A stretch of DNA of 64,000 nt from a virus (taxonomy: Duplodnaviria > Heunggongvirae > Uroviricota > Caudoviricetes): IMG/VR virus record IMGVR_UViG_3300044294_000233, one strand, 5' to 3'. The notes under the pieces were generated by a model that worked only from the letters and a program-made list of their open reading frames with translations, ran no database searches and was not told where the DNA came from. Of the stretch, positions 62,273-63,657 are shown in pieces. Positions within the stretch are counted from its first letter, which is position 1. The number at the start of each line of letters is the position of its first letter. A program made the translations under genes and the position numbers.

Positions 62273-63657
62273 TCACTCCGGTGGTAAGTAGCGGTCGGTA
62301 ACGTTCCGACCGGGTTTCACTTTGATGATGCCGTTCTCTGACGGCGGGCCGTCTTTACCGTACTTGATGTACAAGTAAGTAATGTAATCGGCCGCATGGG
62401 GCATTCCGTAAAGCGGCGGGTGCTGACCCATCAAATTCACAATGTCCGGGTACAAACCCAGTTTGGCACCCGAACGCTTCGTGTCCTCGACTATCGTCAG
62501 CCATTCTTTGAAGTTCATGACGGTATCTAGCCGCCACGCCGCCTCGTCTTGCAAAAAGAAGCCCCCACAATCCTTACACTTGTACGTCGCCGGGTTCGTG
62601 TACACTTGTACGTCGCCGGGTTCGTGTCGCCATAATAGCTGCCGCCGTTCTCGTGCAGACACACCCGCGTCCCGTCGTCTTCCTTCGGACCAAAATCAAT
62701 GTAGTCCTTCAACTCCCGCGCCGGGGCCGGACAACCCAACGCCTTCAACGCCGACTCGATCATGTCCTTCCGGTCCAAACCGTCCACGAACTTCGCCGGA
62801 ATCCCGCCCAACCCCCAATACGCCCCCGCAAACTGCCCACACACCGCACCCGTCGTATCCGCGTCCTCACCCAGATTGACGGCGCGAAGTACCGCCTCAT
62901 CGAAACTGTCCGCGTCGTGGAACGCCCACAGAGCCGCTTCCAGAGACGCCACCACCCAACCCGACCCACGAACCATGTTCGGCGTCTTGTTCCGGTAACT
63001 CCCCTGAATCACGTTCTCGATCAACGGGTCGAATTGCTCGGACTTCCTGGCAATCTGAACCGGCTCCCACTCCGGGTCCAACACCGTTTCCCTAGACTCG
63101 CCGTTAATAAGGCCAGCCAGCACCAAGTTCATATAACGACACGCCGACCGACACTGGTCGCTCGCGTGCGTCACCTGACTGGAGTCTGAGGCTTTCTCGG
63201 TGAGAGGGCTGACGTGGCCTTCGGCTAGTAGATCGGCGGTGTGAATCGCAACGGGTGCCAATCGCATGATGCTGCCGTTGCCCGAAGATCCGGGTGCCGG
63301 GTCGCCCGACTTCCAGGGATCTCCGTCGCGCTCGAAGTTCATCAAGGCGTCACGGGTCGTACACCCGATGTCGAAACAGAACCCGTTCACGCTGTAGCGG
63401 CCGTTCTGGAACCAGTCCAAGTAACGGCTCATCTGGTCCTTCAAATCCCAACCCTTCTCGCCGATGCTGTGCGCCAACGCCAGAGCCATCGACGTGTCGT
63501 CGGTCCACTGGCCTTTGGCGAGGCTGTGCGGCCCGCCCGAACGGTAGGTGGTCACCAACGCAAACGTTCCGGGGGAACGGAACTCGACCGCAGCCCCCAG
63601 AGCGTCACCGATTGCGAGGCCGTACAGACAGCCCCGTTTCCTATCAAGATTGTTCAT
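62273..63657 (-). pseudogene. ADP-ribosylglycohydrolase (ARH/DraG family) gene fused to a C-terminal domain of unknown function. A 26-bp tandem duplication splits it into two ORFs (62527..63657 and 62273..62662).
   Basis: GCLYGLAIGDALGAAVEF and GEDADTTGAVCGQFAGAYWG are the ARH signatures. TNPATYKC is encoded twice. Removing one 26-nt unit rejoins the frames to give ...YYGDTNPATYKCKDCGGFF... Confidence 0.6.
62575..62626. repeat. Perfect 2 x 26-nt tandem duplication (tacacttgtacgtcgccgggttcgtg).
   Basis: Read directly from the sequence. A 26-nt unit is not a multiple of 3, so it shifts the frame. Confidence 0.8.

Follow-up and report, generated by a model that had tools for sequence, protein, structure and literature searches.

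The window analyzed here is a stretch of 64,000 nucleotides (nt) of phage DNA (Duplodnaviria; Heunggongvirae; Uroviricota; Caudoviricetes) from IMG/VR virus record IMGVR_UViG_3300044294_000233. At positions 62,273 to 63,657, on the minus strand, it carries a gene for an ADP-ribosylglycohydrolase (ARH) followed by a gene for a protein of 81 amino acids (aa), and near the 3' end of the ARH gene there is a perfect 26-bp tandem duplication (Table 1). A reading made earlier from the letters and the open reading frames (ORFs) alone, called here the original prediction, had taken the locus for a single ARH fusion gene that the duplication had broken. In our analysis, the probable explanation is a different one: a recent and genuine duplication has swapped the last 13 residues of an ARH whose catalytic part is whole, the 81-aa gene is separate, and the event is an ordinary recent mutation.

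The repeated unit reads TACACTTGTACGTCGCCGGGTTCGTG on the plus strand, and its two copies (62575-62626) are 100% identical. Tandem Repeats Finder gives the array a score of 106, with a period of 26 and 2.0 copies. Period-26 identity spans 62575-62627, so the homology at the junction is one extra nt. When the window was scanned for perfect tandem duplications with periods of 8-199, one other appeared, a trivial 12-nt case at 28242-28267, and by our own arithmetic the number of perfect 26-nt tandem copies expected by chance in 64 kb is about 1e-11. The insertion of 26 bp into the ARH gene shifts its frame by +2 after codon 352. A second ORF of 129 aa (62273-62662, minus strand, with a GTG start) contains TNPATYKCKDCGG, and both ORFs encode TNPATYKC, just as the original prediction had noticed. 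When one unit is removed in silico, a single ORF of 452 aa appears (453 codons including the stop, in agreement with the figure of about 453 put forward before).

The two-copy state is not peculiar to this record. The exact frameshifted 376-aa product is present in a public collection (as P0001), where it is recorded on nine contigs, from JGI (3300045004, 3300045005, and 3300045010) and from Logan (SRR35359074, one contig with five samples, and SRR35364242), the longest listed being 125.8 kb. The five loci that were fetched (L001-L005) match the window with 100% identity across as much as 4.5 kb and have two copies each, and the remaining four of the nine contigs encode the same frameshifted product. 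At the homologous site of the relatives L006, L007, and L008 there is a single copy; in all, four related phages have one. The same two-copy sequence came out of two independent assembly pipelines (JGI and Logan) and at least six sequencing runs, and the contigs cross the repeat without interruption. The duplication is real, and no one-off assembly error. That the extra copy should be an assembly or sequencing artefact in a genome that is truly single-copy, as the original prediction had considered, is scarcely credible in view of this agreement. Nothing speaks for an artefact directly, although short tandem repeats are occasionally mis-assembled; moreover, the 52-nt array of period 26 has no repeated 31-mer, so that a de Bruijn assembler should yield it only from reads spanning the copy-copy junction. 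The samples with two copies probably come from one study.

The same assemblies bear on another idea of the original prediction, that of a reversible, phase-variable switch in which one copy would give a 452-aa read-through protein, and two copies a 376-aa and an 81-aa protein. Perfect 26-bp tandem repeats can indeed be lost again through slippage. However, there is no copy-number polymorphism in any assembly: this genotype always has two copies and the relatives always one, the site of the repeat being single-copy coding sequence in the latter. Known contingency loci carry many copies of units of 1-7 nt, whereas here there are just two copies of a long one, and we regard such a switch as extremely unlikely. 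Programmed frameshifting was also considered and is rejected, since the relatives are single-copy with an ordinary stop and the arrangement calls for no slippery site. Exact and gapped DNA patterns for the one- and two-copy states had no match in the viral_contigs and metagenome_contigs collections, neither of which holds this phage, so that this outcome carries no weight for either state; as a control, the pattern matches the window and L001-L005. A related-locus search with the tail and the 81-aa sequence found no confirmed relative among viral or metagenome contigs, and a blastn comparison of 61900-64000 with GenBank phages gave no match.

The catalytic domain of the ARH is complete. The match to PF03747 at residues 9-288 covers profile positions 1-286 of 287 (E = 5.4e-73; 246.6 bits, against a gathering cut-off of 26.2), and the protein also matches the PHROG 6572 family “ADP-ribosylglycohydrolase” (E = 5e-64). 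The original prediction had recognized an ARH by the signatures GDALGAAVEF and DADTTGAV, both of which are in the protein, and had named a profile search as something that could still overturn this assignment; the Pfam match supports it. By sequence, the nearest solved structures are the Thermus thermophilus ARH (2cwc, E = 2e-60), Tri1 (6dre, E = 3e-57), and DraG (2woc, E = 3e-27). Residues E25 (in AVEF), D53/D54 (WTDDT), D96 (CFDIG), and D265-A-D267-T268 line up with the motifs for catalysis and metal binding in 6dre, 2cwc, and 2woc; the E-D-D triad of DraG and Tri1 and their protein-arginine substrate have been described (PMC8120803, with the triad in Table 2). In an alignment of 48 sequences, the window protein conforms at all 75 invariant columns. 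The ratio of nonsynonymous to synonymous substitution rates (dN/dS) in the catalytic domain is 0.07-0.11 for pairs that include the window and 0.06-0.12 among the relatives, and by this measure the domain is under strong purifying selection. The nearest cellular homologues are about 307 aa long and 60-64% identical. Those with names include Planctomycetes (Rubinisphaera, Thalassoroseus, and Pirellulales), which hints at the host group of the phage. A scan for promoters and terminators around the ARH gene gave nothing above the shuffled expectation.

The duplication changes what follows this domain. The ARH ORF runs to ...GDTNPATYKC, continues with TRTRRRTSVRIVGASFCKTRRRGG, and stops. In an ancestral-type ARH of about 365 aa the last 13 residues would be KDCGGFFLQDEAA; these are replaced by 24 unrelated ones, and Cys355, putatively the fourth zinc ligand beside C333, H335, and C352, is lost with them. 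The point of the frameshift is 64 residues beyond the end of the catalytic domain (288 by Pfam; about 310 in the AlphaFold 2 (AF2) model), and the frameshifted length of 376 aa falls inside the span of the intact-tailed relatives (352-376 aa). The relatives fetched with their contigs were P0121, P0122, and P0123 (88-90% protein identity) and P0002 (76%). The tail ends in RVCLHENAHYYGDTNPPTYKCNDCGDCFLKGEMV in P0122, in RVCQHENHYYYGDTNPPTHKCRDCGESFLHGEMVVA in P0123, and in ACDHPHAHYHGDTNPPAYKCDDCGAIFIKG in P0002, each followed by the stop. Relatives with an intact tail share a C-terminal ...C-x-D-C-G-x-x-F-(L/I)-x-G... and stop about 10 residues beyond a CxH...CxxC mini-domain; we infer that the tail would bind zinc. 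The ribbon is missing in about 40 cellular homologues and in the phage relatives P0121, P0003, and P0007. To call the gene broken, as the original prediction did, is thus to overstate a frameshift that alters just the last 13 residues of a tail which many relatives lack.

In the AF2 model of the restored 365-aa form, the mean predicted local distance difference test score (pLDDT) is 90.4, and residues 1-310 are above 90. The tail then has a disordered linker (321-331) and a low-confidence part (pLDDT 45-73) whose three short strands cover 340-342, 349-351, and 358-360; the third of them is removed by the breakpoint. A homologue search with the tail alone returned no candidates, which is a limit of the word index. 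The duplication leaves the catalytic domain (residues 1 to about 310) as it was, so that removal of ADP-ribose by the enzyme most likely continues; judged from its sequence, the core is probably intact and active, with only the accessory function of the tail lost. The tail of this phage ARH clade evolves readily in other genomes also. The ARH of L009 (L009:1635-2663) stops right after ...RVC, with the zinc ribbon deleted, while P0003 and P0007 have unrelated short tails and the cellular homologues end at about 307 aa.

The distal part of the supposed fusion is an independent gene. A word-index search with the 81-aa protein gave 11 homologues, which are 52-81 aa long and all lack an ARH domain, and an exhaustive HMMER search of 1.84 billion representatives gave 30 matches, nearly all of 57-123 aa and aligned from about residue 1. 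Three of the HMMER matches are to long proteins, and in these there is no ARH-sized fusion: two align over short internal stretches only, and for the third no aligned stretch is listed. In the family alignment the first methionine reaches at least 90% conservation, and 25 columns do not vary, the consensus being MNFKEWL..GAKLGLYPD..GQHPPLYG..AADYITYL..GPP..PGR..RYLPP. The gene was located at L006:5649-5894, L008:1691-1897, L009:2684-2932, L010:842-1087, L011:1314-1559, and L012:1389-1634. Its relation to the ARH gene varies among these genomes. In L008 the ARH stop, TGA, is separated from the ATG of the 81-aa gene by 15 nt; in L006 the two flank a further gene of 175 aa (L006:5113-5640); in L009 the ARH without zinc ribbon stops earlier; in L010-L013 no ARH is adjacent, and in these distant relatives the neighbours include an RNA ligase (L010) and a Thg1-like gene (L012). 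ARH and 81-aa gene are on different contigs in L007 and L010, which come from the same sample. A leader, TAGATACC(G)TC or near-identical, precedes the ATG in L006, L008, L009, L010, L012, and L013 (not in L011), and is kept in L010, L012, and L013 though no ARH is upstream. This leader may be a translation-initiation or regulatory element; in several contigs the motif stands within a short inverted repeat, GACGG...CCGTC. The JGI and Logan gene callers both annotate the 81-aa gene separately.

Because its homologues stand alone, because it has its own start and leader, and because its neighbourhoods are unlinked to the ARH, the “C-terminal domain” is an independent gene, which the comparative evidence indicates is translated from its own ATG. 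It is very unlikely that the ancestor was a 452-aa fusion of an ARH with a C-terminal domain, pseudogenised by the duplication. The uninterrupted 452-aa ORF that appears when one unit is deleted does favour such a fusion, but among 5.8 billion clusters none covers it beyond the ARH and zinc ribbon (best coverage 79%, barring an unrelated phosphatase fusion). The 81-aa family is stand-alone in all 11 of the word-index matches and almost all of the 30 HMMER representatives, a stop codon or a whole gene separates the two parts in relatives, and the leader and first methionine are retained even where no ARH is near. The 81-aa protein has no significant match in Pfam, PHROGs, NCBIfam, or PADLOC, and its AF2 model (mean pLDDT 40) is unusable. 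A 52-aa protein (P0133), listed on a 254-kb contig, is 100% identical to part of it. Genuine fusions of a different architecture do exist among ARH homologues: P0032, P0037, P0054, and P0115 (52-63% identity) are fused to PF22784, PF22741, PF22785, and PF00782, the last of which we take to be the dual-specificity phosphatase family.

The long ORF of the single-copy state has its origin in a second change. At the ancestral position of the ARH stop this genome has TGG in place of TGA, and it is for this reason that a single-copy sequence reads on to 452 aa. A TGA is present here in L009 too, 18 nt ahead of the downstream ATG, although the ARH of L009 ends at an earlier TGA. Two changes, that of the stop codon and the duplication, thus distinguish the locus from the ancestral arrangement, and the shifted ARH frame now closes at a TAG that belongs to the conserved leader and lies 8 nt short of the ATG of the 81-aa gene. 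Although synonymous divergence has reached 0.42 from the nearest relative, the repeat copies do not differ from each other, which makes the duplication young relative to the branch; with a 5% per-site divergence of each copy, the probability of no difference between 26-nt copies would be about 0.07.

Table 1. Features of the ARH locus, in window coordinates.
Feature	Position	Strand	Sequence, evidence, or remark
ARH gene as now read, 376 aa (352 native and 24 out-of-frame), with its TAG stop at 62527-62529	62527..63657	-	ORF list; P0001
Catalytic ADP-ribosylglycohydrolase domain, residues 9-288, complete	62794..63633	-	PF03747, PHROG 6572, PDB matches, AF2, dN/dS
Surviving native tail, residues 311-352: linker and C333-x-H335 ... 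C352 of a putative CxH...CxxC zinc ribbon	62602..62727	-	Motif kept in P0122, P0123, and P0002; AF2
26-bp repeat, first copy in the coding direction	62601..62626	-	Coding strand reads CACGAACCCGGCGACGTACAAGTGTA, translated as ...TNPATYKC in the frame of the ARH
26-bp repeat, second copy in the coding direction	62575..62600	-	A ribosome on the ARH reads the +2 frame, RTRRRTSV; the other frame gives TNPATYKC, then KDCGG...
Out-of-frame, arginine-rich 24-aa tail TRTRRRTSVRIVGASFCKTRRRGG, replacing the native KDCGGFFLQDEAA including Cys355	62530..62601	-	Translations; comparison with relatives
TGG at the ancestral ARH stop position	62534..62536	-	TGA in L006 and L008 (DNA alignment, leader comparison)
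Conserved leader TAGATACCGTC, directly 5' of the 81-aa gene ATG	62519..62529	-	Contains the TAG at which the frameshifted ARH now stops
Independent conserved 81-aa gene (MNFKEWL...RYLPPE)	62273..62518	-	Stand-alone homologues, own Met1, other neighbourhoods, separate gene calls

The order of the two changes admits a different history for the same anatomy. The change from TGA to TGG might have come first and fused the ARH to the 81-aa gene, and the duplication might then have been selected for restoring two products. Both changes are specific to this genome (the stop is TGA in L006 and L008, and L009 has TGA there too), and the single-copy frame does pass the downstream start codon without a stop. 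The duplication is also young, so that a neutral point change falling at random along the branch would more often be the earlier of the two. The opposite order is no less simple, however: after the duplication, the TGA to TGG change would be a neutral Asp-to-Gly substitution in a junk tail. There is no evidence for harm from a fusion, and no intermediate genome of either kind (one copy with TGG, or two copies with TGA) was found in the collections searched. We hold this compensatory order to be a tentative and rather doubtful possibility. If true, separate expression of both genes would have been rescued at the cost of the zinc-ribbon tail, and the duplication would be held in place, as reversion to one copy restores the fusion.

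Under the explanation that we prefer, an ordinary and recent duplication, the sequence of events would be as follows. Replication slippage, with 1 nt of homology at the junction, would have duplicated 26 bp near the 3' end of a DraG/Tri1-like ARH gene. With the frame shifted, arginine-rich residues would take the place of the native end and its fourth CxH...CxxC ligand, and translation would stop inside the leader of the next gene. The enzyme would still remove ADP-ribose, by analogy from protein arginine, and whatever the tethered zinc ribbon contributes (targeting or partner binding, for example) would be lost. The original prediction had offered slipped-strand pseudogenisation: a recent event of the slippage type fits the single copy in the relatives and the two copies on nine contigs, while the pseudogene does not stand.

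Several points weigh against this explanation. The two-copy contigs are all 100% identical, which makes the allele real and dominant where it was sampled and does not imply long persistence. A minority subpopulation with a single copy may exist, the evidence being assemblies rather than reads. The pairwise dN/dS values average long branches and are blind to very recent relaxed selection. The CxH...CxxC tail is kept across relatives that are 76-90% identical, which suggests that it probably matters where it is present, and without it the enzyme might work less well in vivo or not at all. A natural frameshift in phage RB69 takes away a C-terminal helix of AdfN, a NADAR hydrolase, and this impairs activity (PMC11825919).

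Comparison with known systems places the protein as most likely a DraG/Tri1-like arginine-ADP-ribose hydrolase that still works. It shares the PF03747 fold family, the triad, and the DxDT metal motif with Tri1 of Serratia proteamaculans (6DRE), the T. thermophilus ARH (2CWC), and DraG (2WOC). It scores below the equivalog cut-offs for both named enzymes, with 255.9 bits against 490 for Tri1 (NF041672) and 140.4 bits against 337 for DraG (TIGR02662). The Tri1 match covers profile positions 66-351 only, and the N-terminal extension that occludes the toxin is absent here. Unlike Tri1 and DraG, the phage protein adds a C-terminal CxH...CxxC tail specific to its phage clade. It belongs to the same family as the phage ARH/ARG proteins of PHROG 6572, from which it differs by the extra tail and the frameshift due to the duplication. 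ARG domains occur in about 5% of jumbo phages and sporadically elsewhere, and have been proposed to act on macromolecular ADP-ribose conjugates (PMC9503650, section 3.4.2). The closest parallel for the mutation is AdfN of RB69: in both cases a natural frameshift near the 3' end of a phage enzyme that removes ADP-ribose alters the C-terminus alone. AdfN, however, has the NADAR fold and acts on ADP-ribosylated DNA, its frameshift is a single-nucleotide insertion, and the helix that it loses is needed for full activity (PMC11825919), whereas the element lost here is an appended mini-domain.

The original prediction had also proposed that the enzyme counters DarT-like toxins. The phage enzymes named in the literature consulted as acting against DarT are the NADAR protein AdfN (PMC11825919) and DarG2-like ones (PMC13309987), and in the DraG/Tri1 clade the members characterised so far take ADP-ribose off protein arginine (PMC8120803); a role against DarT fits less well. 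The ARH protein has no Pfam match to a NADAR or Macro domain and no PADLOC family match. A Pfam sweep of 55 ORFs, confined to the window as part of a longer contig, found no ADP-ribosyltransferase (the 2599-aa ORF and a few other large ORFs were searched with PHROGs only or left unchecked), and the ORFs neighbouring the ARH gene have no Pfam matches. Read most simply, and by analogy, this orphan hydrolase would reverse ADP-ribosylation of protein arginine imposed by the host. It could alternatively regulate a phage transferase encoded outside the window.

The window is clearly of phage origin, with baseplate wedge proteins, gp25, Phage_base_V, a tail fibre protein, a LAGLIDADG endonuclease, and a tRNA nucleotidyltransferase. 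The last of these is an ORF of 516 aa (37097-38647, plus strand; phrog_2244). Other ORFs match HAD_SAK_1 (the RNA-repair “Swiss Army Knife”), nucleoside 2-deoxyribosyltransferase, ParB_N, AAA, and LAGLIDADG, and together these matches suggest a set of genes for RNA or tRNA repair and nucleotide modification. The giant 2599-aa ORF (21071-28870, minus strand), which adjoins the baseplate and tail genes and holds the 12-nt tandem repeat, may encode a tail fibre, adhesin, or tape-measure-like protein; the PKD-domain matches in the window come from other ORFs. Directly upstream of the ARH, L006 has a 585-aa gene (L006:2235-3992) with a weak Pfam match to ResIII, a helicase family, where the window has small ORFs. 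About 1 kb past the high-coordinate end of the window, on the same contig, a 236-aa gene (L001:1425-2135, minus strand) matches PF24827 (AstE_AspA_cat, of the succinylglutamate desuccinylase/aspartoacylase family).

For annotation, two genes should be recorded here, an ARH whose C-terminus is altered and, after it, a distinct gene for the 81-aa protein; the labels pseudogene and fusion would both be wrong. Its importance beyond this is slight, and the pairing of stop loss and frameshift is the only mildly unusual aspect: it illustrates how two mutations in a dense phage genome can mask or compensate each other. The locus is also a small natural experiment on whether the zinc-ribbon tail of the phage ARH clade is dispensable. 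Independently of this duplication, orphan DraG/Tri1-like hydrolases in large phages are plausible counters to arginine ADP-ribosylation by the host.

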